Source: a virus
Length of the DNA: 64,000 nt
Virus record (IMG/VR): IMGVR_UViG_3300014913_000009
Span: 25,971 to 89,970 of that record
Strand: one strand, 5' to 3'
In this document: one piece after another, positions 656-45,300 of the stretch
Layout of the letters: each line of letters starts with the position of its first letter
Numbering within the stretch: the stretch's first letter is position 1
The notes under the pieces: generated by a model
Seen by the model: the letters and a program-made list of their open reading frames with translations, nothing else
Told to the model about the DNA's origin: nothing
The model's database searches: none
Program-made: the position numbers and the translations under genes

Positions 656-690
656 CATTTTATTAATCATGAAAAATAGGAGTATTAACT

Positions 691-990: not shown

Positions 991-999
991 TTTTTAGGT

Positions 1000-1073
1000 T
1001 GCAAGATAGAGTAGAGGTCACTCGACGGTCTCATAAGCCGTATACCCTGGTTCGATTCCAGGTCTTGCAACCA
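1000..1073 (+). tRNA. tRNA-Met (CAT), initiator-like
   Basis: Cloverleaf: acceptor TGCAAGA/TCTTGCA, D stem GAGT/ACTC, anticodon stem ACGGT/GCCGT with loop CTCATAA, T arm CCTGG-TTCGATT-CCAGG, encoded ACCA end. Confidence 0.93.
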
Positions 1074-1090
1074 TTTTTTTTTTTTTTTTT
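1074..1090 (+). terminator. T17 tract directly after the tRNA CCA (possible terminator/attenuator)
   Basis: 17 consecutive T after a structured RNA; run length may be a homopolymer artefact. Confidence 0.35.
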
Positions 1091-1100
1091 AATATCAGTT

Positions 1101-26365: not shown

Positions 26366-26378
26366 GAGGAACTAAATT

Positions 26379-27017
26379 ATGGCTATGAGCACAAATGATT
26401 ATGGTAAAACATACACATCTTTCTCCGGTGCTGACATTCTCATCTCTGTTGGTGGGAAAATTATGGGTGAATTGCAAGGAATATCCTACAGCATTACCCG
26501 TGAAAAAGCACCATTATATACACTAGGGTCACCGGACCCCCGCTCATTCTCTCGTGGCAAACGAGGAATTAGTGGAAGTTTAATTTTCTTAGTATTTAAT
26601 AAAAGTCCGCTTCCCGGAAGCATGCCAGAGGAAAGGGTTGAGTTTATAGGGGATTCAAAAGAGGGTCAAATTTCTACATCTATGTATAATAATAATCTCT
26701 TTCAAGAGCCAACTGCCCCACTACAAACCATAGCCGCAGGCACATTCGGCAGCGAAAATCCAATAAAATCATATTATGCAGATCAGATCCCCCCGTTTGA
26801 TGCCCTGATAAGAGCGTCAAATGAATATGGACATACGGCATTCATGGAAATTATTGGTATCGAAATACTTAATACCGGCTCTGGAATGTCTGTTGACGAC
26901 ATTACAATTGATGAATCTCACACTTATGTTGCGAGACGTATCAAAAAATGGTACAATCAGCAGAGGTTTGCCGGCAGCAGATGGGCCGAGGACGATTATC
27001 TTGGTGCCTCATACTAG
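26379..27017 (+). CDS. Tail tube protein
   Basis: Follows sheath; YTSFSGADI, GELQGISYSITREKAPLYTLGS, RGKRGISGSL; strong AGGAGG SD. Confidence 0.85.
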   Translation: MAMSTNDYGKTYTSFSGADILISVGGKIMGELQGISYSITREKAPLYTLGSPDPRSFSRGKRGISGSLIFLVFNKSPLPGSMPEERVEFIGDSKEGQISTSMYNNNLFQEPTAPLQTIAAGTFGSENPIKSYYADQIPPFDALIRASNEYGHTAFMEIIGIEILNTGSGMSVDDITIDESHTYVARRIKKWYNQQRFAGSRWAEDDYLGASY

Positions 27018-27064
27018 TGCATGATAAGACGAAACAATGAAAAATTTAGATGATTAAGGAAATG

Positions 27065-27098
27065 GCCTGGCAGCCGTCATGGCTGCCAGGCTCTTTTT
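27065..27098 (+). terminator. Intrinsic terminator after the tube gene
   Basis: GCCTGGCAGCC-gtcat-GGCTGCCAGGC followed by TCTTTTT. Confidence 0.88.
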
Positions 27099-27101
27099 AT
27101 T

Positions 27102-27764
27102 ATGACTACTGACCCAAAAAAAGGATTTCCCGATTATCGCTACTCTTTCACAGGAAGCGATTACCGTGTAACCTACATCTCAAAAAATACCGAAGGACTC
27201 AATCGGGTATTAACCGGATTGCAGACTCTTTCATTCTCTACCCATTCGGACTTATTCCCAGGCAGACGGCTTGGCGAAAAAGGTGTTCATGGATATGCAG
27301 TTGGCACAAAAACAGTCGCCGGAACAATGATATTCTTATTCAGAGGAAATGACCCTTTCCTTGAAGAAATTGCCATCTCTGAAAAAGAAGTAAAAGGCAA
27401 TACTCCATACGAAACAAGACCTTGTCATTTGGAGGCTATTCCTGAATTCGATCTGATTATACAGGCAACTTCAGAAGTACCCTTATATGATGCTCAGGGA
27501 AAACTCAAAATACACAATACAAAAATGTTTCTCGGCGGAATAAAATTATCCGAGACTGGCGGCACATTATCTATACATGATGTATATACAGAAATAATGT
27601 ACACATTTGTTGCAAGAGAGCAGATTCCTTTTGCATCATCCATCCCCGATGATACAATAAGTAGAATCACGCAAAATAAAAATCAGTCGTCATCTATTCA
27701 ATCTCTACTTAACCAATACAACGATCAATTAGATGAGTTTAGAATAAGAAGGGGAAAAAGTTAA
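27102..27764 (+). CDS. Tube-like baseplate/tube initiator protein 1
   Basis: YSFTGSD, LQTLSFS, GTKTVAGTMIF, FDLIIQA, YTFVAR align with the tube protein. Confidence 0.7.
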   Translation: MTTDPKKGFPDYRYSFTGSDYRVTYISKNTEGLNRVLTGLQTLSFSTHSDLFPGRRLGEKGVHGYAVGTKTVAGTMIFLFRGNDPFLEEIAISEKEVKGNTPYETRPCHLEAIPEFDLIIQATSEVPLYDAQGKLKIHNTKMFLGGIKLSETGGTLSIHDVYTEIMYTFVAREQIPFASSIPDDTISRITQNKNQSSSIQSLLNQYNDQLDEFRIRRGKS

Positions 27765-28858
27765 TGGCAATACTTAATAATAATATGCCGCATAAATATT
27801 TCTCCTCCTCTGATTGTAGAATTCTCATTACTAATGGACAAGGAAAAGAAAGTTGGATAGACGAAGCATTCTCGATAGAGTGGATTGTCAATGCGCCAAT
27901 TAATCCGTTGTATGGATATAAGGATAGAGAAATTCGGGCATGGACACCAGGGCGAAAAATAGTTCAGGGTTCACTTATAATGAATTTCAAAAGGCGGAAT
28001 AGTATTACATTGGCAATGACCAACAGTATTGAAAATCTTCTTTACAAAGACATTACGGTAAAATCTGAAAGTAAATTGCTAGAAACAGAGCAAGAGATAA
28101 AAGTAAGGCTTATTAGTTATGCCGAATTTATCAATTCCTATTTCTACAAATTGCCGACAGGGATGAGATTCCAGGATTTGGGACTTCCTTCTGTAAATCT
28201 GGAAGAACCACAGAATACACAAAGAGCCAACGCATTGGCAAATATCCCAATACAAGGAAAAGAAATCAAGATATGCAATCTTCAACATCATGCAAAAAAC
28301 TGGGAAACAGACGAAACCGTCCTACATTCACAGCAATCAAATCCACGCAGTCTTGCCGATGGGTATTCAACAAGAAGAGGTGTTTTTATAGGGGATGGTT
28401 ATAATGAATCTCTGCTCGACGAATTGGATGAATTGATTATAGAAGAACCAAAACATGATGGCAATATTATTTCTCTTAATAATAACAATCCATATAATGC
28501 AGTCGATACTGTATTGCCGAAATTCCTATCCGGATACAGAGATAGTCTTGCCCTGAAAAATGCGCAAAATCCCAATAGTCGAGAACGTCTTAAAAATATA
28601 TATTGGGGCGACGAAAGTAAGGGCGCTTATAATTTACCAGCACCTTATGATAGCGCGGAATCATTATCGCGACAAAATGATTTCGTGATACTTATTGGAC
28701 AGAAAGATCCGATTGATGATTCATTTGAAGATTTTAATCCAGTCGATAGAATACGAATAGAAGATGTTAAATTCCAAGGAGAACAACAAAGAATATCACA
28801 TGCAGAGAAGGATGTGCTTCGTGTAGCATATCCGTTTTTGGCCAAAACGGTCGATTAA
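27764..28858 (+). CDS. Tube-like baseplate/tube initiator protein 2
   Basis: YFSSSDCRI, PLYGY, GRKIVQGSLIMNF, YPFLAK align with the tube fold plus a central insertion. Confidence 0.65.
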   Translation: MAILNNNMPHKYFSSSDCRILITNGQGKESWIDEAFSIEWIVNAPINPLYGYKDREIRAWTPGRKIVQGSLIMNFKRRNSITLAMTNSIENLLYKDITVKSESKLLETEQEIKVRLISYAEFINSYFYKLPTGMRFQDLGLPSVNLEEPQNTQRANALANIPIQGKEIKICNLQHHAKNWETDETVLHSQQSNPRSLADGYSTRRGVFIGDGYNESLLDELDELIIEEPKHDGNIISLNNNNPYNAVDTVLPKFLSGYRDSLALKNAQNPNSRERLKNIYWGDESKGAYNLPAPYDSAESLSRQNDFVILIGQKDPIDDSFEDFNPVDRIRIEDVKFQGEQQRISHAEKDVLRVAYPFLAKTVD

Positions 28859-28889
28859 TATTAATACTTTTTTTAAGGATGAAAAACAC

Positions 28890-29540
28890 ATGTCAAATTT
28901 ACCTCCAGGACAATTCGAAGTACCACTTAACGAAGACGAAGTTCCATTGCAAGAAGGTGCAGATGGCTTTCCCGTTGGATTTGGACCTAACTCAGGACGA
29001 GACAATAAGTCCGAACCCAAAAAACCAACAGTACATCAAGTCCCCATGCCACCTCAAGCACAATCTCCCGAAGTATCCACATACTTCAGCCAGAATCGTC
29101 AGTTAGAAGGACAACCATCTCCTCCACCAGGATTCCATTATGACGGATTATTAAATGATATCCCATCCGAATTTCTACAAGCATTGGAAGAGAATCCCGA
29201 AGCCGATTTGGCAAACAATTCCTTATATCCGCCAGGATTAAGACAAGAAATGATTGACAAATGGAAAGAACGATTTGGCAAATCAAATGTTTATCTTGTT
29301 ACAATCGTCGATCATGTTTATGTATTTCGTGCAATTTCAAGACAAGAATGGGCCTGGATAAAACAACAGGGATTCGACCAGGAGACGTTTGAAAACCAGA
29401 TGGTTTGGACAACCCTATTATTCCCCAAGGTGAGTGCCGAAGTCATGCAAGCATGGCCAGCAGGAATTCCCAGTAGTATTACTGAATATGTGATGCGATT
29501 CTCCGGATTCTCCGCAACCGCAACGCCCATAAGACTTTGA
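28890..29540 (+). CDS. Tail assembly chaperone 1
   Basis: Position before tape measure; WKERFG..VY, VFRAISRQEW, PAGIPSSITEYVMRFSGF. Confidence 0.65.
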   Translation: MSNLPPGQFEVPLNEDEVPLQEGADGFPVGFGPNSGRDNKSEPKKPTVHQVPMPPQAQSPEVSTYFSQNRQLEGQPSPPPGFHYDGLLNDIPSEFLQALEENPEADLANNSLYPPGLRQEMIDKWKERFGKSNVYLVTIVDHVYVFRAISRQEWAWIKQQGFDQETFENQMVWTTLLFPKVSAEVMQAWPAGIPSSITEYVMRFSGFSATATPIRL

Positions 29541-29543
29541 GCC

Positions 29544-30215
29544 ATGGAAATATCTGATCCGAGGATAGCCTTTGACCTCGACAGACGATGGGCATTGCCA
29601 GATACGACACAATGGACAAGGTCTCAATGGTCGCCACATATAATTGCGGCGATCATTGACGCTAAAGAGCAATATCCAACGGTCTTTATGGTGGAAGTCA
29701 CTACCCCAAAAACATATAATCATAATGGAGATGATTTTCTCTTTATTGTTCGCCCATTATCAAGAAGGGAATTCAATATTGTTGGCTCTGTAAATGCCGC
29801 GGGAATGTTCTTCGATAGAGAAGTATTATATCGGCGATCATTATTATGGCCGGATGAAGATTTTCTCGACGACTTACCAGCAGGTGTTATAGAGACTGTA
29901 TATGATACTGTCGAAATGATATCCGGCTGGGGAGATGTTAGGACACTCCAGGAGTTACAAGCAATTTCGCGCGAACAAATAGGTGTGGATAATGATGTGG
30001 GGTCGGTTGAGTCAAAACTCGACATGACGTTAGGAACAGTTTTCAAATCATTGTCGCCGCTTGACATCAAAGATATGGATGCCTATGAAAGTATGCATCT
30101 TATTTCTATGGTGGAAGGAATTCTTTCCGAACAAGGATTTAAGTTTGACCTTTCTTTCGAAGACAGAAAAGCAGAAGAGGAGATAAGACGAAAAAGATTC
30201 GTTGTTAATAGATGA
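29544..30215 (+). CDS. Tail assembly chaperone 2 (paralog)
   Basis: IVRPLSRREF, PAGVIETVYDTVEMISGW parallel chaperone 1; ATGA overlap with next gene. Confidence 0.6.
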   Translation: MEISDPRIAFDLDRRWALPDTTQWTRSQWSPHIIAAIIDAKEQYPTVFMVEVTTPKTYNHNGDDFLFIVRPLSRREFNIVGSVNAAGMFFDREVLYRRSLLWPDEDFLDDLPAGVIETVYDTVEMISGWGDVRTLQELQAISREQIGVDNDVGSVESKLDMTLGTVFKSLSPLDIKDMDAYESMHLISMVEGILSEQGFKFDLSFEDRKAEEEIRRKRFVVNR

Positions 30216-33200
30216 CCGATTATAGAGATGAATCAAGTACTTGGGAATCAACCCTAAAATGGGGAATGATTGGCATTGGTGCCGTTATGGGTGCTCGTGC
30301 TGCTTATCGTTATTCCCCTGCATTTCGTAAAGCCGCAATCGAAACTGCCGCGACTGCAGGTGATTTGTATCGATCGGCTGGAGTCCAAGCCAGAAAATAT
30401 GCATCCAGATGGTCAACAAGCGCAAGTCCCGCAAAACAAGCGAGTGCGTCAGCCCTTGAATACTTTGCTGGCATAAAACAGGGAGGTATGCCGGCAGCAT
30501 CAACAGTCCTCGAATCTGAAATGATTGAGTCCCTATCTCGTATTGATGTAATCCAATATAGCGACGATGCAATCGGCGATCTTAGATCTGCACTTGGCAG
30601 AAAATACGGGCAACCGATAGTAGGAGCGCCTAAAGGATATCGTCATATGACGGTACAAGACATCCTCACCAATGCACAAAAAGCCAAAAAGGGACATTAT
30701 GCAATCGGCGAGGGCGGCAGGATGATGACGGCAAAAGGTTATGAAAACCTTAGGAGCGCCGTACAATCCGGTGCCGTTGACACTGAATGGATATTCAATC
30801 AAGACATATTTCTTCGCGAAATGGATAATGGAAAATTCCTAATAAGAGATGCTCGATTAGTTAATCCTGCAAAAACAGTATCTCAGGCACTTCAAAGATC
30901 GCAAAAATTCCGCATATTGGGTATGAGCCCAGCCGACCCGTTAGTTCCAAGTTCATGGACAACAAAAACTGCATCGGATTTAATGAGTCCAGATATTCCG
31001 ATAAATCTTCGTGGCAGAGGGCCAACAAAAGTTGGTGGTGATTCTGTAATGCAAATTGGGGATAATGTATATAGCGTCCAAGGCAATCAAATGAAACGCG
31101 TAGGCAAAACCGACGCTCGTATATATACTAGCCCGAGATTGGTTAAGGAGCGTGCTGGACAAGCCGGTATGGGCGGTCAGTATTATGGACCAAAAGACAC
31201 CCAAAGAGCAGTTACCGCAAAAGAAAGAATTGCACAAGATCCCAATCGCTACAAAGGACCGATTGGGAAAGTCCGGAAATGGGCCGAATCCGGAAAAGGA
31301 TACAGAGGATTTGGAATCGGCGAAGGATATAATATTGGACCGCAATATAAACATGGGCAATCCATATTCGGTTTCGCCAGAGATTGGATGAATAAACTCC
31401 TCAATTACAAAACGGCAATCAATCTTAAAACGGGAGCAAGGGGCGCAAAAGCATTTGCCGAAGAGAGCGTAATTGACAAGGTTAAGGGTTTCTTCAAAAT
31501 CACTCCGGATAAAATGAAGAAAAATATGTATTGGGCATCCGAAGAAGAACTCGGAAACCTCACCCTCAAACAAATGAAGGATGCCGCGAATCTTCATGCA
31601 AGCACCCACACAACCATAGAGTCCGTCTCAACGCCGACAATGAGACTTCAGGGTAAATATCATACTGAAGTTAGGGATGTCGCTATGACGCCAGGTGAGG
31701 CTGTGGGGGCCTTTGGCAGAAAGTTCACAACATCCGCAACAAGGGTGTTTGAATGGGCAACGGGAATGGGAGTTAAGCCCGGCACCGCAGGACAAACAAT
31801 GCTTAGATTGGTGGCGAAGGGGGTCATCCCGACATGGCTATTGGTTGAAGCATTTAAGTATGGCGATTTTATGTCGGAAGAAATAACAGGCGTAAGTCCA
31901 ATAAAAATGGGGGCTTATGGCTATGCGGGGGCGCAAACTGCAAAGCAGGGAATGCTTAATCTATCCGGATTTTCAACACTTTCAAATGCCGCGGATGAAG
32001 CTACAGGTGGTTTTTGGTCATCGACCGGAGGGACAATATTAAGAACTGCCGGTATTTTTGGAGCAAGTCTGGCAATCGGCGCTCATCCAGCCGCGAGTAA
32101 AGCGACAAAAAAATGGGCTCCAAGATTAGGGCTCGGATTAGCAGCGTTGCAACTTACGGGATCTCCCGGTAAATCGGCATTTGATCAATGGGATGAATAC
32201 ACCGGAAATAAAATGGTGCCGATAAGAAGGGGAAGGGGTTGGCTCACTGGACCACAACCTTACGAAGGTGGAGAAGTTCAATATTATAGGAAGCATGCAG
32301 TAGCACAAATATTGGATGATAGCCAATATGAAAAGTTTGGCGGGAAACAAGCATATTTTGAAGACTTATCTTTATTGCCAACACCTCATAATTGGATGGG
32401 CGCGAAAAGAATATTGGATCCTTATGCATGGGAAAAGCGCACATATTACGATCAGCCGTACCCACTTAACAAAGGAATGTTTTCTGAAGTTCCAATAGCA
32501 GGACCACTCCTTGATCTTACTGCTGGCCGCATTCTTAAGCCAAGAGTAATGATGCATCAACAGGAAATCCAGAGGTGGCTCGATACGCCACAAATTCCGA
32601 GAGACCCCAAAATGACAATGATTGCAGATCAACTCAATATGCAATTACCCGTTACCGGAAGAGCCATTCCTAAATTCGGCGTAGCACAAGAAATCGGAAC
32701 GGCAATAAAGGGTGCAACAGATTTTATTGGTATGCCCGGATTTATGCTGAATGCACTTAAAGAAAAGGCAACAGGAAGTTCCGAATGGTTCCATGATGGC
32801 CCAGTATGGCAAACGCCAGACTATCAGGTATCTCAAGTAAGAAATTTCTTTGAGATGGAATGGGGCGGAATGCTTGGGGGATCAGAATTGTTCCGGCGTA
32901 TGTGGTCAAAAGATTCTCACGAAGTATCATTCGTTAATCCAATCCCCAATACAATGCCGGATTATATGCCCGGAAGTAGATCAATGTATGGAGATACTAA
33001 TTTCATCAATTTCTCCGAAGGTGATCCATTTTCAAAAATAAGAGCTCCTGGTGCTCGCAATCTCCACATGGCACTCAATCCTCATACGAGTAATTTTGAC
33101 AAATGGAGAATGCTCAAAGGGGTCGCCCCATTCTCAAGAGCTGCGAAATCATTCGAAGCGGGAGTTATTGGAGCTGGAGAAAATCAAGTATTCAATGATG

Positions 33201-34321
33201 CACAGCAATCCCAATTCGAAGATGTCCAGAGTCGTATGAATATGTATGATCCTTCGACCGCATGGGCAGGGGAAGAAGGTGGAAGTTCCGGATTCCAATC
33301 ATCATTACCTCATATTCCGTGGGTCAGCACAAAATTTATGGGCGCTCCATCACCAGAGGAACATTATAGAAAAATGGTAAGATATGGTTCTGATTACTGG
33401 GACTGGAAAAATCCTTATGATCAAATGCTGGATCCATACCTATCATACATGAGCACCCAAAACCCGGTATCTGCAGCTGGTAGTGGTGCATTACTAGGAT
33501 CAATCGCCGGATCAAGAGGCGCTGTTGTAGGAGCCGCTTATGGGGCGGTGTCTTCAATCTTTTCTGATGATAGTATTTCCAATAAAGAATCTCGCAGGGA
33601 ATTTACAGAAGATTATTTTGACAAAATGCAATATACCAAATTGCGCATGATGGAAGAACGCGCACTGGATATGAATAGAAGTGACCTTGTCAAAAAAATC
33701 CAAAATATGCAATCAAGCACAATGGTCGGATTGGATTATAGTCTGGACTCGGAAGAATTTGCATTAGCAGCCAAAAAAGCATTGCCATCAAAAGACAGGG
33801 GTTATCTAATGGCGCTTGCAAATTCGGGTATGGATACTTCGGAAATGCCAGAATATATGCATCCGATAATTGACAAGCTTCGTGGTCAGGGTAATCCTAA
33901 AATGAGTTATGCATCCAGAGATAGGATGGTCTCTGATTGGGTTGGAGAGAATGGCGGGATTCCCGGTGGAGAATGGGCTGGATGGGCTCCTGGCGTAGAT
34001 ATGCAAAAACTCAAAGCGGTTTCTGTTGCTGCTGATGGCGATAATATGCATGACTATGGATCTTATGAACCCGATGTAGAAATGGATGCCTATAGTTCTC
34101 CCTACTTAGATGCCATACAAAACTACGGGACAATTAGCAATCCAGACTTGCAAAATATGAGTAGGATGGTGTATAATAATATGGCTCATCTCCGCAAGTT
34201 GGGGATTGACAATGGGGGGGTTATGATTACCCCTTCATTTGGCAGTGGGCGGAGTCAATGGAATATTAATAGAGGGCGCGTAAATAGTGCCCGGCAATGG
34301 CGACAAAGAGGGATTTGGTAA
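30212..34321 (+). CDS. Tape-measure-like protein
   Basis: Follows chaperones; 1369 aa, Ala/Gly-rich, Cys-free, several Gly-rich hydrophobic segments. Confidence 0.7.
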   Translation: MTDYRDESSTWESTLKWGMIGIGAVMGARAAYRYSPAFRKAAIETAATAGDLYRSAGVQARKYASRWSTSASPAKQASASALEYFAGIKQGGMPAASTVLESEMIESLSRIDVIQYSDDAIGDLRSALGRKYGQPIVGAPKGYRHMTVQDILTNAQKAKKGHYAIGEGGRMMTAKGYENLRSAVQSGAVDTEWIFNQDIFLREMDNGKFLIRDARLVNPAKTVSQALQRSQKFRILGMSPADPLVPSSWTTKTASDLMSPDIPINLRGRGPTKVGGDSVMQIGDNVYSVQGNQMKRVGKTDARIYTSPRLVKERAGQAGMGGQYYGPKDTQRAVTAKERIAQDPNRYKGPIGKVRKWAESGKGYRGFGIGEGYNIGPQYKHGQSIFGFARDWMNKLLNYKTAINLKTGARGAKAFAEESVIDKVKGFFKITPDKMKKNMYWASEEELGNLTLKQMKDAANLHASTHTTIESVSTPTMRLQGKYHTEVRDVAMTPGEAVGAFGRKFTTSATRVFEWATGMGVKPGTAGQTMLRLVAKGVIPTWLLVEAFKYGDFMSEEITGVSPIKMGAYGYAGAQTAKQGMLNLSGFSTLSNAADEATGGFWSSTGGTILRTAGIFGASLAIGAHPAASKATKKWAPRLGLGLAALQLTGSPGKSAFDQWDEYTGNKMVPIRRGRGWLTGPQPYEGGEVQYYRKHAVAQILDDSQYEKFGGKQAYFEDLSLLPTPHNWMGAKRILDPYAWEKRTYYDQPYPLNKGMFSEVPIAGPLLDLTAGRILKPRVMMHQQEIQRWLDTPQIPRDPKMTMIADQLNMQLPVTGRAIPKFGVAQEIGTAIKGATDFIGMPGFMLNALKEKATGSSEWFHDGPVWQTPDYQVSQVRNFFEMEWGGMLGGSELFRRMWSKDSHEVSFVNPIPNTMPDYMPGSRSMYGDTNFINFSEGDPFSKIRAPGARNLHMALNPHTSNFDKWRMLKGVAPFSRAAKSFEAGVIGAGENQVFNDAQQSQFEDVQSRMNMYDPSTAWAGEEGGSSGFQSSLPHIPWVSTKFMGAPSPEEHYRKMVRYGSDYWDWKNPYDQMLDPYLSYMSTQNPVSAAGSGALLGSIAGSRGAVVGAAYGAVSSIFSDDSISNKESRREFTEDYFDKMQYTKLRMMEERALDMNRSDLVKKIQNMQSSTMVGLDYSLDSEEFALAAKKALPSKDRGYLMALANSGMDTSEMPEYMHPIIDKLRGQGNPKMSYASRDRMVSDWVGENGGIPGGEWAGWAPGVDMQKLKAVSVAADGDNMHDYGSYEPDVEMDAYSSPYLDAIQNYGTISNPDLQNMSRMVYNNMAHLRKLGIDNGGVMITPSFGSGRSQWNINRGRVNSARQWRQRGIW
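34148..34177 (+). promoter_or_regulatory. Possible sigma70-type promoter upstream of the RNAP-like gene
   Basis: TTGCAA (34148-34153), 18 bp, TATAAT (34172-34177). Confidence 0.3.
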
Positions 34322-37300
34322 ATGCCCAGAAGAAAGAAAAAAGGAATTGTCAAACCATTGTTGGGAGCAGCTGCATTAGGCGGTGCTGGATACGGGTTTT
34401 ATTATAGTCTTAAAAATCCAATCAAAAGTGCTGCGGGAGAAGTAGCCGCAACAAAACCTAGTCAAGCATATTCGGGAAAAGGTCCGATAGATAGAACCCC
34501 TGAATACAAAGGAAAGCCAATAATGATTGGTGAAAATCCAATCCCGCCAGGCGGACTTAATTTACGAACCGAATCAGAATTTGCAAAATTGTCCGCGGAA
34601 CATCTACAAAAAGTCGACGATGCAACACTACGAATGCTAAAGCAAAATACAGGACAATCCAATAGTTATGGTGGCATCTTTTCTGCTGCAGAACAACAAG
34701 GATTGGGAGTAGATATTACCAGGACTGGCGGAACAATCAACGTAGAAATACAAGGACTAAAAGGTCCAACACAAGTAGTGCAACTTCCAGCCCAACCAAG
34801 AGGAGGCGGAAAAGCAACCTTCGGTCTGCGCAGATATAATGCACCAACCTTTATTGTTGGCGAAAGAGGTGCGGAAAGAATAGGGCATGTTCAGGATGCA
34901 ATTGAAGAAAGTATTTTTAATGCAATAAAAGACAAGAAAAATCTTACTCCAACCCAATTCGCCGATGTGATACAAAACGCAAGACAGGAAGTATTTGATA
35001 TATTGCCGGCCAGCACCAATACGGATTATCGCGGATTTGGGCAAACAATCGAAAGTACCAGAATGTCCAATCGTATTGTTGGAACGAGACTTCAAAGGGA
35101 ATTAAGTACACTTGACAAAATCCACGGAACCGGAGTGCAGGCAGAAGCGGCTAGACGCGGATTCAGAGGAATTAAAACACGAGCAGATTTATATGGTGCG
35201 GTTATCTCTGATTATTGGCAGGGAATGTCTGATGACGTATTAAAGAATGTGGGAATATCGACCAATAGAACTTCGCCTGAATTTTACAGACAAGTAATGT
35301 CGATGTATGACAATACTAAAGGTGGAAATATGATTAAGGGGATTGGACATAGATCGGTCATGGGTAAGTCCGCAATTGTTGGAACCCCACTTGACAAAGT
35401 ATTACATGAAGGTGGACGTATTTTAAGAAGTGGAAATCTTGTCAATCCAGAAAGTGGACAAATTGCAAAAACATGGAATGGAATTAAAGATGGAATGATA
35501 TCCAACTTCCCTGCTGGACCAGAGGGAATACGAGCATTAAATACCGGAGCCAATAATAGGCTGATTGGAACAACCAGCCGTGCAGCATTTATCGTTGATC
35601 CGAAAGCAGCGGCAGTACTTGGTTTTGATCCGTTCGAATCCGGCGGATCATTTAGAGTTTCCAAAATGCAAAAAGACGTTCTTACACAAGGTATTCATAC
35701 AAGGTATAATCTTGATGTTCGACCAGGATCTCCAGGTGCTCCAAAAGGAATTGATCTCGCCATAAAAAAACAAAAGATTGTCAGGTCGGGAAACAGAGGG
35801 AAATATGACAAGTGGATTGGCGGGCTTTCGCAGAAGGAACAACGTATTGTTGGCGGATTCGATGATCCTTTGATGACATTTGGTAAAGGACAACTCGTTG
35901 GATCGGGGTCAATTGAATTCATCGAAGATGGGGCGACAAGATCAGTCTCAAGCCGCAATATAAGGACAAGAGGTACTTATGATGTTACAAACATAGGATA
36001 CAATGCCATTGATGATACTCTTTCAATACAAGGGCATATGCGTGCCTCAACGGCGGCATTAACGATAGGAGGAAGTCATGCAAGTATGAATCCGCATACA
36101 TTTTCAGCAAGCAAGCTAGGCGATGCTATGAGCGGAGGGAATGTACATATACTTGGATCGTGGACAGATCTTAAAAAATGGGATCAAATGGGAGTGCTTT
36201 TTGATGACCTTGCAGTACAGATCGAACAAGGGGGAGGAAATGCCGTGAAAGCATTTTCAGACCTCAAAACAATGAATCTAAAAACATACAACCAGACTGT
36301 TAAAAAATTTGGGCTTGAAAGCAAAATAGATTATATATCCAAAAAAGGAGAGATAAGACTCAAGACGACAACAAGAGATGCGAAAGAAATCGCATTAGCT
36401 GCTGGTTATACGGAGGCTCAAGCGGCTGGAATAACAGGGCAAATAGAAATGGCAAATCTTGCATCTAAGGTTACGATTGGAGGAGAGGCATCATTCTATT
36501 CTTCGAAGGGAGTGTGGTCAAATGCATATCAAGAAGGTACATCATTGGCACATAGGCGGCTTGGAAAACTCAATGAAATTCAGAGTGTATTACAAAGAGG
36601 TGATGTCGAAGAAGCCAAGCGAATGATTAGAAATATTGGAGGAGATAAAGGAAAAGATATATTCGCATCCGAAAGAAAAGGATATGGCGAAGCATTTGGC
36701 AAACTTGGACAAAAAAATATAGACGACAGATCAATACTGCTCAATAGAACAAGAGGACTTATTCAAAGTGCAGAAAAAGATATTAATGTTGGACTTAGCA
36801 AAATGAATACTATTTCAAATCTTAAAATGGGATTTGATGAATCTATCATGCTTGGACTTACAGCAAACAAATCATACAAGACATTAAGTAAAATCATACA
36901 AGGAGAAATGGTCAAACAATCAGGTTCTGCTGGCAGAGAATTAAGAGCATACATGGGGCAGATGGGAATGGGGACTCAAGGCAATTGGGGTATCGCCAAT
37001 GTCGGAGCGCTTCAAACAAAAAGCGGGCCATTGACGAGGGTGAAAATTGGAAGTAGCGAACTCAAAGAACTTGGCAGTATTGCAAGAAATTTAGAAAAAC
37101 AATTATCCGATGGCAGTCCAATCACACAAGAAATGTTCGACAGTGTAAATAAAAAATTTAATGATGCTCTTGGAAGGGTTGGTGTTGCTCCAGGAGAATC
37201 AATGGGTGGATTTCTACTTGAAACAAATGGGATGGAATTACCAGTTGCCATTGGAAGTAATCCGGTAAAAGTCGGAGGACAACAAGGGCAAATATATATA

Positions 37301-39391
37301 CCAGGCATTAATGAGGCGGTTCCTCAAAACCAAATGTTCCAACCCGGTGGATATTCAAAAAACAAAATACTTTTAAGAAAACTCAAACTTTATCAGCACC
37401 TTGGCATGTATCCAAATGAAGCAATAGTTGGGAAAAGAGCAATGCCGGGGCTTGCCGAAAATTGGAGATTGGGAACTGGCAAAGCAATGGGGGATTTATA
37501 TGATGAGTTGAATGTAATGTCCACTTCAAAAAAGGGTGGGGGCAGAAGAATAATGGGGCAAGAATGGAGAGCAGAAGCATCAATTTATTCTCAGGCAATT
37601 GGACAAGGACAAATTGATATACAGGATAGAATGATGGCATTAAGCGGATCAGAGAGACAGCGAATACAGGGACTAAAGGGGACGCAGCAAATAGAAGCAC
37701 TTGACGACGCATTAGCAAATACAATATTCATATCCAAAGAGCAGGCAAAACTTATGCCCGATGATATTTATCAAGCCATCAAATCCGGCAAAGGATACGG
37801 AATCACAGGACGATGGCCAATAGTATCTCCTGGTGGCATTGGAGTTACGCGTTTTGCTATCGCTGAAAGTTTGCATGGAAATGTCGCAGGAGTTAGTTCT
37901 GCTGGACTAATGAGATTTGCCGGTGATGTAGATATGGATAAAGTCGCAGCATTTGTTGGTCGATTTGAAGGAAATGCAGAAGCACAAAAAGCATTAGAAG
38001 AAGCATATAGTTATACACTCAAACAGAATCAGATGGTCGGCAAATATATTAATAATCGTATAAACGATATGAATATCGACGATATTTCAAATGAATTTCT
38101 TGCCGATTTACAGAAGTCATATAAAAAAGATTTTGGGACACAGTGGGATGACCTTATAAAAGAAACAGGAAGTGCTGAAGGAGCACTAAGAAAAGCATTA
38201 TCATCGCGCGCTGCTACACAAACAATGACTGGTGGAATTACGAATAAACTTAGACAGCAATTTATGTTTCTTGCGGAAGGTGGAGCAGATGATCTTGTTG
38301 CCCAAACTGCTGCAGATGTTATGGGATTGTCAATAATAGAATCACCTATTATGGCAAGAAAGTCAGGAACAGGATCTCTTGTTGGAGAAGAATTAATACA
38401 AATGATGGAGGCTGGAGATTCCGATGCTCTTGCGAGAAAAATCAGAGATGTTGGAGTTGCCAAAAACCTGACTGGAGAACAATTATCTCAATTAACTGGA
38501 GAGCAATCTGCATATTATCAAAATCTAGCCAAGCAGACAAAAGTTGGTGCAGCACAAGAAGGATTCGCCTGGGGTGAAGTTGCAAGACAAGAAGGTGATG
38601 ACTTTTTGGCAATGGCACAAAAGGGGAGTGGGGCAAAAGTTGGGCAAGGATATCAAGATGTGGCAGAACTTCTTGTTCGGACTAGCAAAGAATCGCAGGA
38701 AATATTCAGAGGATCAGAGAAATTTATCAACAAAGTCAGACTATCCTTGGACACTCTTGATCCAGAAGAATTCCCCGTATTCCTTCAACAAATTGCCAGC
38801 GATGCAGAAAAAACATCCCCTCTACAAAGACAAATGGCTGCGGCGATGATATCTCAAGATGATGAAATGATTAAAGCCCTCTCTGGCTATGAGCAAGGAA
38901 TGACAAAAGTCGTTGATACAATATCACCTTCAATGGACGATATGTTGGAATCCGCGACAAGAGCGGGAGTTGGGAAAGATGCTGAATCAATGCTCAATAA
39001 GATTGCACAAACAAAGGTGGGAGAAGCAATCCAAAAAGCAATCCAAAATCATCCGGGAAAAATGGTTGCTGCTGGAGCAGCCGCAGTTGTCGGGTTGTAT
39101 GCTTTGTCTCATATGTTTGGCTCGTCACCGCCAGCACCACCATCATACGAAGATGGTCAGCCAGGCGGCCGCAGTGGCACTGGCGATAGGCCGGCATATT
39201 TAAGGGGCGACACTCAACAACAAGGGCGTAATTTTGGATATAATACAATTATCGAAGGCAATACAGAAAGCACCCAGCATATAAGGTCATTCGCCCAGAA
39301 GGGACAAATGTCAATCAGGGACAATTCGATGTCCGACATGCAATTTCGGCATGCTATGGGACAAGCATCTACTAGTAAGTTTGGATACTAA
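34322..39391 (+). CDS. Putative virion single-chain two-barrel RNA polymerase-like protein with terminal hydrophobic anchors
   Basis: Ordered beta-like segments (IGTTSRAAF, FESGGSFRVSK, LKMGFDE) then beta'-like segments (KKGGGRRIMG, IFISKEQAKLM, GRWP, FAGDVDMD, TGGITNKL). Confidence 0.72.
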   Translation: MPRRKKKGIVKPLLGAAALGGAGYGFYYSLKNPIKSAAGEVAATKPSQAYSGKGPIDRTPEYKGKPIMIGENPIPPGGLNLRTESEFAKLSAEHLQKVDDATLRMLKQNTGQSNSYGGIFSAAEQQGLGVDITRTGGTINVEIQGLKGPTQVVQLPAQPRGGGKATFGLRRYNAPTFIVGERGAERIGHVQDAIEESIFNAIKDKKNLTPTQFADVIQNARQEVFDILPASTNTDYRGFGQTIESTRMSNRIVGTRLQRELSTLDKIHGTGVQAEAARRGFRGIKTRADLYGAVISDYWQGMSDDVLKNVGISTNRTSPEFYRQVMSMYDNTKGGNMIKGIGHRSVMGKSAIVGTPLDKVLHEGGRILRSGNLVNPESGQIAKTWNGIKDGMISNFPAGPEGIRALNTGANNRLIGTTSRAAFIVDPKAAAVLGFDPFESGGSFRVSKMQKDVLTQGIHTRYNLDVRPGSPGAPKGIDLAIKKQKIVRSGNRGKYDKWIGGLSQKEQRIVGGFDDPLMTFGKGQLVGSGSIEFIEDGATRSVSSRNIRTRGTYDVTNIGYNAIDDTLSIQGHMRASTAALTIGGSHASMNPHTFSASKLGDAMSGGNVHILGSWTDLKKWDQMGVLFDDLAVQIEQGGGNAVKAFSDLKTMNLKTYNQTVKKFGLESKIDYISKKGEIRLKTTTRDAKEIALAAGYTEAQAAGITGQIEMANLASKVTIGGEASFYSSKGVWSNAYQEGTSLAHRRLGKLNEIQSVLQRGDVEEAKRMIRNIGGDKGKDIFASERKGYGEAFGKLGQKNIDDRSILLNRTRGLIQSAEKDINVGLSKMNTISNLKMGFDESIMLGLTANKSYKTLSKIIQGEMVKQSGSAGRELRAYMGQMGMGTQGNWGIANVGALQTKSGPLTRVKIGSSELKELGSIARNLEKQLSDGSPITQEMFDSVNKKFNDALGRVGVAPGESMGGFLLETNGMELPVAIGSNPVKVGGQQGQIYIPGINEAVPQNQMFQPGGYSKNKILLRKLKLYQHLGMYPNEAIVGKRAMPGLAENWRLGTGKAMGDLYDELNVMSTSKKGGGRRIMGQEWRAEASIYSQAIGQGQIDIQDRMMALSGSERQRIQGLKGTQQIEALDDALANTIFISKEQAKLMPDDIYQAIKSGKGYGITGRWPIVSPGGIGVTRFAIAESLHGNVAGVSSAGLMRFAGDVDMDKVAAFVGRFEGNAEAQKALEEAYSYTLKQNQMVGKYINNRINDMNIDDISNEFLADLQKSYKKDFGTQWDDLIKETGSAEGALRKALSSRAATQTMTGGITNKLRQQFMFLAEGGADDLVAQTAADVMGLSIIESPIMARKSGTGSLVGEELIQMMEAGDSDALARKIRDVGVAKNLTGEQLSQLTGEQSAYYQNLAKQTKVGAAQEGFAWGEVARQEGDDFLAMAQKGSGAKVGQGYQDVAELLVRTSKESQEIFRGSEKFINKVRLSLDTLDPEEFPVFLQQIASDAEKTSPLQRQMAAAMISQDDEMIKALSGYEQGMTKVVDTISPSMDDMLESATRAGVGKDAESMLNKIAQTKVGEAIQKAIQNHPGKMVAAGAAAVVGLYALSHMFGSSPPAPPSYEDGQPGGRSGTGDRPAYLRGDTQQQGRNFGYNTIIEGNTESTQHIRSFAQKGQMSIRDNSMSDMQFRHAMGQASTSKFGY

Positions 39392-42300
39392 TGAAAAAAA
39401 ATATAAAAATCGGACATATCCCATTGACTGTTGATCCTCAAAATATCAACATTACCAATACATCGTATAATTCTGCCGCTGTCGGATTAAGGTCCAATAG
39501 TGCACAAGTTGTTCCAACGGGATATTCCGACTTCTCGGTGATGATAAATCTTATATTCCCCAGCATTGAAGATATTAATAATAAGTTACGTCCGATAATT
39601 GCCATAAGCAAAGCACTTCCTTTTGTTCCCGTCAGGTCGGAAGATATTGCCGATGCTTTAGTATTGGGAAGCGAACTTGAAGGAGAACAAACTCAAAAAG
39701 ACGATAGGCAATTATATGAAGATCAAGTTAAGGTAGCATTCTATCAATGGGCGGAAATAGTATATCGCTATTATATATTGCCGGCAGTGAGAATAAAGAT
39801 TCAGAATGAAGATAAAAATCCTATAGACATTCTAAAAAAAGCCATCAAAGTACAATACGAAGATAGATTTCTTCCCATAGATGAAGTTTTGTATAATGAC
39901 CGAAATTCCGGCACAATTATCGCGGATAATATTACTCAAAGAAAATGGTATTGGAATTATGTTCTCCTTGAGGGCGAAAATGCAATTGACAAAAATGTAA
40001 ATTACACAAAACCACAAGTTTATGAATTGCTGGGAGACGATACTGCTCCCGATATTGATATTCAGCAGCAGCCAAAATATACATTTATAGCGTCCATTTC
40101 CGGACCCGACAAAATTATTGACGGAGACACCATAACGGTAACCCCGAGTGGTCCGTTGGGACCCCATATTGTTCGCGTAACAAATTCCGAAGATGTCAAT
40201 ATTCGCATGGTTGGATATGATTCATTTGAAACTATATCAGCATTAGGCAAAAAGCCCGATGCGAATGTTCCGGAAGATGCATTATTATGGCGGAATGGAC
40301 AAGAAGCACATTCAACAACACATGTAGATAGTGCATCGGCCGTAGATTATGCTCTCGAGTGTAAAAAGAAATTAAAAGAATTTATATTCGGAACAGGAAC
40401 CTCCCCAATAAATGTAAGAGTCGATGTATTCGATACTGATGGCTTTGATCGAGTTGTTGCAATGATCACTCCGACAGAAGGTCCAAACTCAGGCAAATCG
40501 GCCAATCATGCAATGTTGAGACAGGGACTTGCCATTCCCTATGTGGTGCAAAAAGATGATGCGGCAATATCAGATTCGTCATTTTTACTTGCAGCAAAAG
40601 AAGCCGCTGATAGCAATGTCGGATTGTGGAATGATAATTTATGGCAAGGATATTATTTTAAAGTATCAAAAAGATATCCAGGTCAAAACTTTAAAAAGAT
40701 AACATCAAACGAACTCGACATCGTCACACCAAACAAAACCAGAGGAATTGTCACACCGCATGACTTCCGTAGATTTGGCAATGATGGACCGCAAAGAGCA
40801 CATATTGGACAGCGATTATATTCGAATATAGGAGATACATCAGGATCACCGGCAAATAGAAATACGGGTCCAGATGGATATATGAGAGATGGAGAATCAT
40901 CAGAATCATTTGATTTTACACCAGAGACATTCGAGAGTGTGGAAGCAATGGATAGTGGTGTATTGGGTGTGCGAAAAAATAATTATTATTGGGATTTCAT
41001 TCCAGGTGGATTGCCAAGACGATGGATGCCCAGCGAATTGCATCAAAAACTTGAAGAGGCAATAATAAGCGTTAAGAGAGAATCTGAAATTCGACTAAGA
41101 GGGCCAGCACACATTTTTGCATCAATGGCCGATTCACTGTACGATATGGCTATAGACTTATCGAAAGGTACAATCGAATCATATGGCAGAATCAGAAGTA
41201 AGCATTACCCAGGGGATTATGTGCCATTATCATTTATTGGCTATCAATTAAGAAGTGTCCCTGAATTACCAGATGCAATACAAGCAACTCTTCAATTTAG
41301 ATATTTTAATCATACCCCATATGTACCGATATTTGCATTCATGGGAACGAGTCTTAACGAAGACGATATATTGATGCCAAATCCATCTGTCGCAGAAATA
41401 GATATTGCGCGAAATGCGGCATTCCTAATATATCTGGAAGATAATTATTTAACAGATTCTATGGACAATCGACAATCCGGCAGATATGTAAGACCATACA
41501 CTCATGCAGAAGATATTTTGCTTGAATACCAAACTCCAACCTTAACTACAGAGGCAAAAGATAAGGAGACTGATGATGTCGCATCCGAAAGAACACTTAC
41601 AAGAGGATATGGTTTCTTCTCAAGCAAGGCAATCATAAAGGCTGGGAATATTACTGACGGCGACAAAGCATCATATCAAGTTGTCATTCCAAATACACTT
41701 CTTATCGGAGCATCAATAAGTCTGCAAAATAATATTCCGCAAATTCCACTGGAAGGACTGGAATATCCAACAGCACAATATACAGGAAGAGGACAGGGAA
41801 CAGCACAATTAGTACTGCAGACAAATGACAGATCCGCCATAAGAGCATTACATCATGTTCGCTCATTATCTCAGGAGAGTGCCAGATTGGCAGATAGTTA
41901 TGATTTGAGAAATGCCACAATATCATTCGTACATCCACTTCTCAATATTACAGGAATGCATACATTCGTTATTGATAATATTCAAGAAGATAACGATCCA
42001 AATAATCCCGGTTTATTTAATATTACAATCGACTTAATGGAATCCTCATCGCGATATTCAGTAAGAGAAAAACTCAATCTTGTGAAAATCGGAACAAGCG
42101 AAGATATTATGGAGGATGAATTGGTTGATCAGGTTATTGAGGAAATGTTAGTTGGCCCACCCGATGTAAAAGAAGGGTTAATAAAAGAATTTGTTGGAAA
42201 TGTAAAACGCAAGGAAGGAGATAATCCTTGGTTTTCTACAATAGGGACAAGAAGAGAATCGCTCGAAAGACAAACGAAGTATACAACACTTAAGTATGAC

Positions 42301-45300
42301 GGTTATAGCTATGACTCGATTGGATTAGACAGAGGCTGGATCAAAAAAGACATTGACAGCCAGTATCTCGATACTGGCCAATCAATATTGTTCGGATTAC
42401 TTCCATTCCTATTTGTGGAGGGTGATCCAATGACCCCCCATGATAGTTATTTGTCTCCAAACGGAGACAAATGGAAAGAAATGGGGATCCTTCTTCAAAA
42501 AGAGGGAAAGAGAGATACCAATGACAATAGAGGCAAGAAAGTAAATAAGAAGATTTATGATAAAATCGAAGACAAACTCATTTCGTTGGTAGGCATGAGA
42601 AGCAAGCAAGAAGAATTGATAATCCGGAATTGGCTAAAAGACAATTTGTGGAAAAGAGATACCTATCAAGAAATGCTATATACTACAACTACGGCAGACA
42701 TTGTCAAAAGTCAATTTAATCTTATTGGCGGAATTACATCGAGAGATGCTGCAGCCGGAAGTCTTGCTGCGACATCCGCTATCGCACTCGCACTTCAATA
42801 TGGAGTTCTTACATTTGGTGCTGCCGGAGCGGCAGTCTCATCTGGAGCTTTTGTGGTAATTATAGGAAGTGTTGTGTCAATATATAAATCTGTCGAAGGA
42901 GGATTTCAACTTATTGGCAAAAAGGATCGCATTGATTCTAAATTCACAACTGCTTACCCTAGTCGATATCCCGACGGCAGATTGTCTCATCTTGCTCCAC
43001 CTCGCTCTGGAAGTGATTGGTATTCTGCATTCTATAATGCAATGACTAATTATCAATATGGAGATTATTGTTCGAAGGTCGGACAAGACGTTGCAAGTTC
43101 TCAGTTGGCTCCGAAAAGAGAAATTGATACTGATACCGAAACATCATCAATAATTTATGGAAAAGACAAAATTACTATACATCCATATTGGGCAAGACAT
43201 GCGTGGGGAGCATTATCAACAGCACCCCAAATGATGGATAGTCAAATAACCGAATTGTGGAATCAAACCAAAAATTATACAAGCGTCGATATAAAATATG
43301 TCTTGCGATTTTTATTCAAATTATCCCTCAAATTTGAATCATTTAAAGCACATTTTCTTTCCGCGGCAACGAAACATCTTCCCCATCTCGCCAACAATCT
43401 TGATGGCAGTATTATGACTTCCGATGAACCGGATATGTATTACGATTTGAATTTGCCAACATATAATGAAATTTACGGTCAATTCCATGTGCCGAATATT
43501 GATGCTCGCAAAAGGCTATATAGGGGAGCAATAAGACTTGTAGAAATTGGCAGAGAAATAAACAAGAAGATGGGAGGATGGAAAAAACCATATCCAGATG
43601 CAACATATCCATTCAAAGCATTGTCAAGAATAGAAGTTACACCTCTTGAAAAAGACATAGATGTCCCAAATCCAATGGAATTAATCAATGGAATTACTGA
43701 AACATTTAATATGGTAGGCGATGTATGGGAAGTTGAAGAGCCATCAAAAATAGAAAATGTATTCAAAGATGGAGATAATGCCAAAAAATGGTATGATAAT
43801 ATTTTGTGGAGAGGACATGCAAATGCCGATAACGAACTTCAAGAAAAAATTGACAATTACAATGGTCCTCCAGCGAGAGATCAGGCAAGATTACAACTTG
43901 CATGGATGGGAATTATAGATGATATAAAACGCATCATGTCAAGTTATAATAAAGAAGAAAATACCCCCGAAGAATTATTGCCATCATTCCGCGATATGGG
44001 AATTCGTGGCCCACACGCATTTAATCAGATGGCTAAGTGCAGAGGGGGAAATGATACGGTAAATCCCGGATGGATGTACTATTCTCCGAAGGTTGATATT
44101 TGGGGACAAACAGAAACAACAATTGATGATATGCAAAAATTTGCATCAGAAATATCAAGCATTGGTCCAGACGCAGAAGACACGGGAAGCACTAAAGAAC
44201 TTCCTTTAAGAATCAATAGAGAATCTACGCTTACAAACGTATGGATGGGGAGGGGACCCGCTTCAAAAAAAACAAGCGATGTTGCGTCGCCAGACAGTCA
44301 TGTCGTCCAAAACAAAGCTGGAACGCCGGTATCACAATCTCGCGGCGACGCAGCAACAAAAAAAGGAGGGCATGGTCAAGTTGCGGAAAAAAATGCACAA
44401 TTAAAAAAATTAGCCAGAAATATGGGATATCAAGATGTCAATCTTAATCCTGATGTCCGTCACATCGCAAAAACTAACGTTGAAAATAATCCTCCAAACA
44501 AAGGCAACAAAGACAAACCTGCCCTGATATCAGATTCGAAAAAACTTGTCTCGCCAGGAATAGCATCATCGCCCGCATATCCTGGGGGCAATTTTGGGAC
44601 CCGCGGAGAACAAAAAAAACACATGAAAAGGGTATTTGAAGCACAACCAAAATATCCATTTAATATGCGATTTGCCTATCCTGCAGTAGCAATGTATTTT
44701 GTAGAAGAAGACAATGAGACCTGGGGATATTTCGATGATTACTATAGATACGATTCGATAGTCAGTGTGGAGGTGATCCGTGATAAACAAATCACCGATT
44801 TGGCGGTAATCACATTAACCAATATGACTGGCATATTATCCAACGCACTCAATGAAGATCGCGTGAATGGCAAGCCCGGCAAGGTAATTAAATCAGACGA
44901 TACAACAAGAGTCGAGGCATGGGACAATACTAACGACACATGGAAAAAAGGCAAGAAGGCAGAGTTTTGGGAAGATCAAGAAGATCAATTATTATCATTC
45001 CGAATTAAACAGGGAACACGCATTATTCTTAAAATGGGATATTCCACAAAAGGAATTGATTTGCCGACAATATTTACAGGGCAAGTCGCAGAAATAAGCG
45101 CTGGACCAATCACAACAATCATTTGTCAGGCATATGACTATCAATTGGCAGAGCCATTATATGAAGAATGGGGAAGAGCAGAACAAGAATTTCCCGGGAT
45201 CATTTGCGACATGCTGGCTAAAGTAAATTATTTCGGCGGCTATGCATTCTATCGCGATAGACTTGAAGGGCAAACACAAGGCAGGGGGGCAGATCAAGGC

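Follow-up and report, generated by a model that had tools for sequence, protein, structure and literature searches.

A putative RNA polymerase module in the tape-measure-slot protein of an uncultured contractile-tailed phage

Injected two-barrel RNA polymerases are established by experiment in crAss-like podoviruses (phi14:2 gp66) and in one siphovirus group (P23-45 gp96), and those known from myoviruses are of the multisubunit phiKZ/AR9 type. The question raised by the locus described here is whether P0001, a giant open reading frame (ORF) of an uncultured sediment phage, encodes a further enzyme of this kind. The window, i.e. the whole stretch of DNA analysed, covers 64,000 nucleotides (positions 25,971 to 89,970 of the IMG/VR virus record IMGVR_UViG_3300014913_000009) and is part of an 89,970-bp viral contig with an estimated completeness of 47%. 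The stretch is contained in two sediment-metagenome DNA runs, either of which may be its origin, and no RNA run is found among the matches listed. A first-pass annotation, made from the sequence alone, had described P0001 as a single-chain two-barrel RNA polymerase encoded beside the tape measure, by comparison with motifs of the E. coli beta (RpoB) and beta-prime (RpoC) subunits.

The beta-prime-like module of P0001

All nine strings quoted in the first-pass annotation are present in P0001 at the positions given there. The E. coli counterparts cited there also all exist, and their order is preserved (RpoB residues 796, 812, 829 and 1268; RpoC residues 332, 366, 424, 457 and 793). Five of the strings are beta-prime-like: KKGGGRRIMG (residue 1070, nt 37529), IFISKEQAKLM (1135), GRWP (1163), FAGDVDMD (1199) and TGGITNKL (1303). 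The K-x-G motif is separated from the R-x-P motif by 93 residues in P0001 and by 92 in RpoC, and the R-x-P motif from the Asp triad by 36 and 33 residues, respectively.

A lone DxDxD is not remarkable, given a chance expectation of 0.24 in P0001. P0001 and its three relatives, however, each contain exactly one, in the same alignment column, against a chance expectation of 0.06-0.08 in the homologues. The triad reads DVDMD in P0001 and DLDGD, DVDGD and DTDLD in the relatives, so that D1202, D1204 and D1206 are invariant and the intervening residues vary. In total, four collinear beta-prime motifs are kept across homologues that are 26-39% identical: K-x-G-G-x-R-x-I-x-G, R/S-x-P, DxDxD and G-Y-x-T-N-R-L. 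The first of these contains the invariant residues K1070, G1072, G1073, I1077 and G1079 of the family alignment, and P1166 of the second is also invariant. The fourth, a bridge-helix-like motif (TGGITNKLRQQ in P0001), has the counterparts T-G-Y-I-S-N or V-G-Y-N-T-N-R-L in the homologues. Its residues G1304, N1308 and Q1313 are invariant in P0001, P0004 and P0005, and the first two remain so when P0007, from the locus L002, is added. This motif lies 100 residues past the Asp loop and is helical in the structural model at a predicted local distance difference test (pLDDT) of 36-53; no fold alignment extends there. Judged by sequence comparison, the beta-prime-like motif set exceeds chance.

The family is small. 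An exhaustive HMMER search of 1.84 billion cluster representatives returned only two full-length relatives, P0004 (1679 aa, on a 24 kb contig) and P0005 (1605 aa, on a 6 kb contig), with E-values of ~1e-36 and 27-28% identity. Neither is found in IMG/VR, which contains one further locus, L002 (IMGVR_UViG_3300035698_009244), with an identical flanking gene order. All relatives begin with a hydrophobic segment rich in Gly/Ala and close with a hydrophobic helix and a conserved tail of ~90 residues. Of the hydrophobic segments claimed for both termini, the C-terminal helix (residues 1581-1599) is confirmed; the N-terminal one is weaker in P0001 and passes the hydropathy threshold in P0004 and P0005. 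A word-indexed homologue search returned P0001 itself only, the metagenome and GTDB genome scans contained no homologues and the ESM Atlas was blank. A tblastn search of 50,697 phage records at E<=5, with the whole of P0001 and with residues 885-1420, gave only chance matches to tape measures.

The L002 homologue is split into ORFs of 906 and 874 aa by one frame change, located at 12620-12660 near an AAAGGG run. The homology carries on in the other frame, and the break falls just before an LG-W-Q-E-L-S-M motif. An assembly error is the probable cause of the frame change, but the gene may also be naturally split where beta and beta-prime presumably meet. A frameshift in the equivalent gene of BtI1 was likewise taken as an error by Hardies et al. 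(PMC2147016).

The predicted fold points in the same direction as the motifs. The AlphaFold2 model of residues 300-1480, built from a five-row alignment, has a mean pLDDT of 48.8. Its best part, residues ~900-1250, reaches 60-86 and is also among the best-conserved parts of the protein. In a Foldseek search against the PDB, RNA polymerase beta-prime or largest-subunit chains account for 49 of the 50 best matches, all with weak E-values. They include the non-virion RNA polymerase of AR9 (7s00_d; E 5e-3, probability 0.90), the E. coli and mycobacterial beta-prime subunits and the non-virion RNA polymerase of phiKZ. The top matches of a further structural search belong to the RNA polymerase family without exception (50/50; ~350,000 chains for both searches). 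VIA-align, which is independent of Foldseek and covered 48,161 representative chains, places at the top Pol I, IV, V, III and II, the vaccinia enzyme, archaeal A', Mycobacterium tuberculosis beta-prime and AR9. QDE-1 stands lower, a non-polymerase barrel (the Pex1/Pex6 N-domain) is at rank 35, and the remainder consists of generic helical hairpins that match residues ~720-833.

Counting back from the alignment ends, DVDMD is placed ~2-4 residues from the catalytic loop of E. coli beta-prime (D460-D464), and KKGGGRRIMG falls on the K-x-G-R-x-R motif. The longer alignments start with residue ~884 of P0001 against residue ~10-25 of the largest subunits, at a root-mean-square deviation >8 Å, and the model thus suggests that the beta-prime-like part begins at residue ~884. 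A double-psi beta-barrel of the beta-prime type with a DxDxD loop is predicted. Of the two barrels that the first-pass annotation had expected from such a model, this one is obtained with its Asp loop, whereas the second one is not. The fold matches, the invariant Asp triad and the three other collinear conserved motifs together support the view that the central part of P0001 is a diverged relative of the catalytic module of beta-prime/largest subunits.

The situation is different for the beta-like half. Its proposed strings, IGTTSRAAF (residue 415, nt 35564), FESGGSFRVSK (438), TQGIH (455) and LKMGFDE (834, nt 36821), exist in P0001, but as a set (residues 415-459 and 834) they are indistinguishable from chance, with the key acidic residues unconserved and neither profile nor fold support. 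Three candidates remain: the RpoB-like strings at 415-459; residues 458-590, which are rich in beta structure and contain the invariant R545 and R548; and, at 834-843, the motif LG-x-x-E-x-x-M. This motif is located ~50 residues ahead of the beta-prime-like part, a position that would suit the end of a fused beta. The same half contains a long helical hairpin at ~720-833. By inference from the sequence, residues ~400-880 and the module that follows them may fit a beta-beta-prime fusion.

The tape-measure slot

Known relatives of the sheath encoded in the window are confined to Bacillus phage 0305phi8-36, Moorella phage MTATph1 and a few jumbo phages of Bacillus. In 0305phi8-36 the genes follow the order sheath (gp139), tube (gp140/141), gp142, chaperonins (gp143/144), gp145, gp146 and gp147. 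The window matches this order gene for gene, with P0001 opposite gp146, and the order around the slot also matches that of Acinetobacter phage ME3. According to its record annotation, gp146 was found in virions by mass spectrometry and is a hypothetical tape measure. The tape-measure role of orf146 was assigned by tail length, the gene being 'one gene removed' from the chaperonins, and conservation in this slot is confined to the last ~60 residues (Hardies et al., PMC2147016).

When the last 135 residues are aligned with MAFFT, P0001, its homologues and gp146 agree in a hydrophobic helix, an x-Y-(L/V) position and the motif G-Y-(N/E)-x-x-x-x-G. ME3_36, from the corresponding slot of ME3, fits more loosely, and the similarity is low and carries no E-value. 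The C-terminal module of the slot, a membrane helix followed by a ~90-residue tail, is present in P0001. Given the gene position of gp146 and the common C-terminal helix and tail, the most fitting view is that P0001 is itself the protein of the tape-measure slot and that its enzymatic payload is variable. The earlier statement that the polymerase is encoded separately from the tape measure is therefore probably wrong. An arrangement in which a neighbouring ORF is the tape measure and P0001 a separate cargo is rejected in view of the synteny with gp146, the published assignment and the C-terminal alignment.

Apart from the slot and the C-terminal helix and tail, gp146 and P0001 have no significant sequence similarity. 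The former (L005:32244-39857) contains the string M-T-Y-L-D-I-E-T-T-G-L-S, typical of DnaQ-like 3'-5' exonucleases, and no DxDxD. When this motif is set against the polymerase-like module of P0001, the payload of the slot appears to vary between phages, and the tape-measure slot of the 0305phi8-36 lineage seems to hold different nucleic-acid enzymes in different members.

The location of the gene in the tail operon of a contractile-tailed phage is supported by the sheath, tube and baseplate genes and by translational coupling. The ATG of P0001 directly follows the TAA of the upstream 1369-aa ORF (P0002), and its TAA overlaps the ATG of the downstream 2779-aa ORF (P0003). Such abutting and overlapping codons indicate that the three giant ORFs are translated as one block. 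Three tandem giant ORFs had led to a first guess of a crAss-like phage, which is ruled out by the sheath, tube and baseplate genes of a myovirus.

Candidate readings and their rivals

The phage encodes other putative polymerases outside the window. Two small overlapping genes (genome positions 105-3321, minus strand) encode a beta-like protein of 580 aa, with the motif T-G-D-K-I-T-N-R-A-G-G-K-G-V, and a beta-prime-like protein of 521 aa; both proteins pass the Pfam cut-offs (PF00562, PF00623). A 1044-aa protein (genome 18449-21583, minus strand; L004:5449-8583) contains R-S-P...DFDGD and Q-L-R-E-T-G...A-K-G, reminiscent of RNA-dependent RNA polymerase (RdRP)/YonO-type enzymes. It has no match in Pfam, PHROGs or the PDB and no usable homologues for a deeper alignment. 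Its RxP...DxDxD segment gives the best local profile match of the P0001 family among the proteins tested, and this match is weak. By its sequence the genome is unusually polymerase-rich. With its own Pfam-supported beta and beta-prime genes, the phage would run its own transcription and would need a starter enzyme at entry.

The reading preferred here, by a modest balance of the evidence, is that P0001 is the virion protein in the tape-measure slot of a large phage with a contractile tail, belonging to the 0305phi8-36 lineage, that its residues ~884-1330 are a very diverged homologue of the beta-prime catalytic module with an intact Asp triad, and that it would act as an injected single-chain polymerase. 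Residues ~400-880 would supply the beta-like half. The protein would be built into the tail via its conserved C-terminal module, contraction of the sheath would expel it, and its terminal hydrophobic segments would hold it at the membrane. There it would transcribe the first genes of the entering DNA, as P23-45 gp96 does, and its targets would probably include the phage's own non-virion polymerase genes.

Several results weigh against this reading. Neither Pfam nor PHROGs contains a polymerase match for P0001, for a 200-aa fragment or for any homologue, even at E<=10, and sequence searches of the PDB with P0001 and with the family profile are blank. In comparisons by hhalign and hmmsearch of the family with the 1044-aa protein, the phage's own beta and beta-prime, E. 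coli RpoB and RpoC, ME3_36 and MaMV-DC_65 (from Microcystis phage MaMV-DC), matches were weak and confined to the phage's own polymerase-like proteins, namely to the RxP...DxDxD segment of the 1044-aa one. The Arg of the R-x-P motif is replaced by Ser in one homologue, and the counterparts of the RpoB acidic pair (FED) lack conservation in the family. For the beta-like half, neither E. coli RpoB nor the small beta subunit of the phage itself gave a profile match; its AlphaFold2 model (residues 380-900) has a pLDDT of 40.7, and two fold searches with it returned helical hairpins only and no beta barrel. The single-chain two-barrel architecture is therefore a putative one. In addition, Pfam-detectable non-virion beta/beta-prime genes are absent from ME3, MaMV-DC and 0305phi8-36, so that a polymerase cascade would not be general in the lineage. 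Packaging and injection are proposed on indirect grounds, the translational coupling within the tail operon and the mass-spectrometry annotation of gp146, and catalysis is predicted from the sequence and the model; that packaging, ejection and catalysis are all predictions belongs to the same side of the balance. The blank in the curated models lowers the certainty but leaves room for two-barrel membership, since the published virion polymerases gp96 and gp66 also lack such matches.

The missing second barrel and the unconserved acidic pair of RpoB would be expected if P0001 were a tape-measure or pilot protein that derives from a polymerase but is non-catalytic or incomplete. Such a protein would keep the module for DNA binding or channel lining, or would receive the second barrel from another protein. 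The wide variation of the slot content in the lineage, with the DIETTG motif and no DxDxD in gp146, is also in its favour. On the other hand, three Asp residues that never change at 26-39% identity, with free variation in between, form the pattern of a working metal site, and conservation extends to the K-G-G-R, R-x-P and bridge-helix-like motifs. This alternative is considered unlikely. An ordinary tape-measure or ejection protein, in which the motifs arise by chance and a low-confidence model is over-interpreted, is considered improbable. Chance would have to place 49/50 and 50/50 top structural matches in one family out of ~350,000 chains, on a region that is the best predicted and among the best conserved. 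It would also have to give spacings of 93 vs 92 and 36 vs 33 residues, and a single DxDxD in the same column of each of four homologues against an expectation of 0.06-0.24.

Enzymes of the MltA, RlpA and 3D type contain a double-psi barrel with conserved Asp residues. P0001 might accordingly be another double-psi-barrel enzyme, such as a lytic transglycosylase of the MltA/RlpA/'3D-domain' kind that would cut peptidoglycan as the phage penetrates the cell, in keeping with the frequent presence of cell-wall hydrolases in tape-measure and hub proteins. The rank of the Pex1/Pex6 N-domain in the VIA-align results also fits a barrel of this wider kind. This explanation is nevertheless given very little weight. 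There is no Pfam match to the 3D, DPBB_1 or MltA families; the top 50 fold matches listed include none of these enzymes, an absence that does not exclude the fold; and the alignments reach past the barrel into the N-terminal region of beta-prime. Moreover, the contiguous DxDxD, the R-x-P and the bridge-helix-like motifs are polymerase signatures, and the adjoining hub-like P0003 already matches an endolysin-annotated PHROG. Equally remote is a two-barrel enzyme active as a nucleotidyl transferase in another role, for instance a primase-like or PolD-like one that starts DNA replication. Two-barrel enzymes include the archaeal DNA polymerase PolD, QDE-1 accepts DNA and RNA templates (PMC10770324, PMC9508822), and the present evidence does not fix the template and product of P0001. 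However, the characterised virion-borne two-barrel enzymes are all DNA-dependent RNA polymerases for early genes, and PolD is not among the fold matches listed.

Known systems, cultured look-alikes and gene context

For the preferred reading, an injected single-chain polymerase, the closest precedent is P23-45 gp96, a tape-measure-fused enzyme that transcribes the gene of a second phage polymerase (Chaban et al. 2024, PMC10770324). Like P0001, gp96 is a giant tail protein in the tape-measure position, with membrane segments, almost no similarity to known polymerases and a polymerase module known mainly by its DxDxD loop, and a second phage polymerase is encoded elsewhere in the genome. Unlike P0001, it belongs to a non-contractile siphovirus, has 5,002 residues, an N-terminal polymerase (DFDGD at 779) and a metallopeptidase, whereas P0001, with 1,689 residues, comes from a sheathed phage and has its Asp loop, DVDMD, at 1202. 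The activity of gp96 is proven and that of P0001 is predicted. The virion two-barrel polymerase fused to a tape measure is thus already known from P23-45; what P0001 adds is another tail type, a new sequence family and a DVDMD site. P0001 is probably a sequence-orphan variant of such an enzyme.

Cellulophaga phage phi14:2 gp66 (crAss-like; PDB 6VR4) is also a single-chain giant virion protein with a DxDxD-type site; its gene lies among those of structural proteins, next to genes for other giant virion proteins. It differs from P0001 in coming from a podovirus-like crassvirus, in its size (2,180 residues) and in being head/tail cargo and not the occupant of a tape-measure slot; it is not among the fold matches listed. 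The YonO/RdRP-like single-subunit polymerases, including 0305phi8-36 gp99 (PF05183-like; PMC2147016, PMC7824862), are non-virion proteins encoded outside the tail module, and the top fold matches of P0001 are, in contrast, beta-prime subunits of the multisubunit type, including their N-terminal region. The phiKZ and AR9 enzymes are relatives of beta and beta-prime, and their beta-prime N-terminal subunits are among the best Foldseek matches of P0001. These phages use a packaged enzyme and then a non-virion one, and the same logic would apply to P0001. Their enzymes are, however, made of 4-5 polypeptides, packaged in the head and detectable by Pfam, while P0001 is a single chain, encoded in a tail operon and invisible to Pfam. 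The literature searched contains no description of a single-chain tape-measure-slot polymerase in myoviruses.

Foldseek matches in BFVD extend to an unnamed giant protein (E 4e-9), a siphovirus 'minor tail protein' (E 2.6e-5) and proteins of phages ME3 (A0A172Q021, E 5.6e-4) and MaMV-DC (A0A075BUT7, E 6e-4). ME3_36 (1603 aa, annotated as hypothetical), the protein behind the ME3 match, occupies the same slot as P0001, between the gp145-like ME3_35 and the hub protein ME3_37. It also resembles P0001 in a Gly/Ala N-terminus followed by N-P-I, in S-K-G-G-V-R-E, in R-E-P...DHDQD at 1178-1225 and in a C-terminal helix and tail. MaMV-DC_65 has 1677 aa and R-T-P...DADGD. No sequence method (profile searches, hhalign, MAFFT) ties either protein to the P0001 family; in the MAFFT alignment the motifs of ME3_36 are out of register with those of the family, and the family profile finds nothing in the whole genomes of ME3, MaMV-DC and 0305phi8-36. 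With this partial support, ME3_36 and MaMV-DC_65 may be regarded as leads. MaMV-DC encodes two unannotated giant proteins with polymerase-like Asp loops, MaMVDC_65 (L010:9224-14257, minus strand) and MaMVDC_82 (KF356199 66652-77334, minus strand; 3560 aa, DFDGD at ~2540). The polymerase table of the P23-45 paper (PMC10770324) lists neither ME3 nor the Microcystis phages.

A broader proposal would extend the preferred reading to a whole sequence-orphan family of single-chain two-barrel RNA polymerases in the tape-measure-slot proteins of contractile phages of the 0305phi8-36 lineage, ME3 included. Such an enzyme would be shot through the tail tube and would then sit anchored in the membrane. 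In the present phage it would start a cascade of up to three polymerases (P0001, the 1044-aa DFDGD protein and the minimal beta/beta-prime pair). This proposal is tentative, with the balance slightly against it. P0001 would then be a rather divergent member, with its DVDMD site and its polymerase-rich genome. If true, the injected single-chain polymerase arose or was kept in a third tail architecture, the start of transcription in large phages of the old 0305phi8-36 lineage would be explained, and the question would arise of how an enzyme of ~1,700 residues traverses a contractile tail tube and refolds. Neither Pfam and PHROGs nor the published polymerase profiles detect the family, and such genes are consequently now annotated as 'hypothetical' or 'tape measure'. 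The ME3 look-alike brings the idea within reach of a cultured system.

The coordinates of P0001, its parts and the neighbouring genes are given in Table 1.

Table 1. Parts of P0001 and surrounding genes, in window positions
Feature	Position	Strand	Residues or length	Remark
P0001, whole ORF	34322..39391	+	1689 aa	
N-terminal Gly/Ala-rich hydrophobic segment	34355..34411	+	residues ~12-30	conserved K-N-P-I motif next
Candidate beta-like half	35519..36961	+	residues ~400-880	putative
Beta-prime-like module	36971..38311	+	residues ~884-1330	includes predicted double-psi barrel, ~1074-1242
KKGGGRRIMG	37529..37558	+	residues 1070-1079	counterpart of K-x-G-R-x-R-x-N-L-x-G opening the beta-prime barrel
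R-W-P	37811..37819	+	residues 1164-1166	counterpart of beta-prime N-R-A-P
DVDMD	37925..37939	+	residues 1202-1206	candidate Mg-binding Asp triad
TGGITNKLRQQ	38228..38260	+	residues 1303-1313	bridge-helix-like
All-helical C-terminal region	38312..39046	+	residues ~1330-1575	most tape-measure-like part; modelled helices continue to the last modelled residues
C-terminal hydrophobic helix	39062..39118	+	residues 1581-1599	
Conserved C-terminal tail	39119..39388	+		PP-x-PP, G-Y-N-T-I-I-E-G, M-S-I-R-D-N-S-M-S-D
P0002, upstream giant ORF	30212..34321	+	1369 aa	positional counterpart of the virion structural proteins 0305phi8-36 gp145 and ME3_35
P0003, downstream giant ORF	39391..47730	+	2779 aa	hub-like counterpart of gp147 and ME3_37
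Terminase	11038			upstream of P0001
Portal	15748			upstream of P0001
Major capsid protein	20231			upstream of P0001
Tail sheath	24911-26365	+		
Tube paralogues (two)	26379-27017, 27102-27764	+		
364-aa ORF	within 24911..30215	+	364 aa	between tube paralogues and chaperonin-position ORFs
Two small ORFs	28890-29540, 29544-30215	+		tail-chaperonin position
Baseplate wedge gene	48949			downstream of P0001

Some of the neighbouring genes have features of their own. Residues 317-415 of P0003 form a staphylococcal-nuclease domain (PF00565, E 1.8e-6), and a nuclease on a tail-hub protein is unusual. Its match to the endolysin-annotated PHROG covers residues 2457-2629, and the protein also has several hydrophobic helices. 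The tube paralogues match phrog_9206, which is labelled 'major head protein'. This label was apparently taken from the RefSeq product name of 0305phi8-36 gp140/gp141, whose notes say 'tail tube', and seems to be an annotation error that has spread. Directly upstream of the morphogenesis genes, at 999-3574 of the window, there are a cytidylyltransferase (PF02348) and a weak MptE-like match below the Pfam cut-off, both compatible with the sugar-modification cluster pointed out earlier for this DNA.

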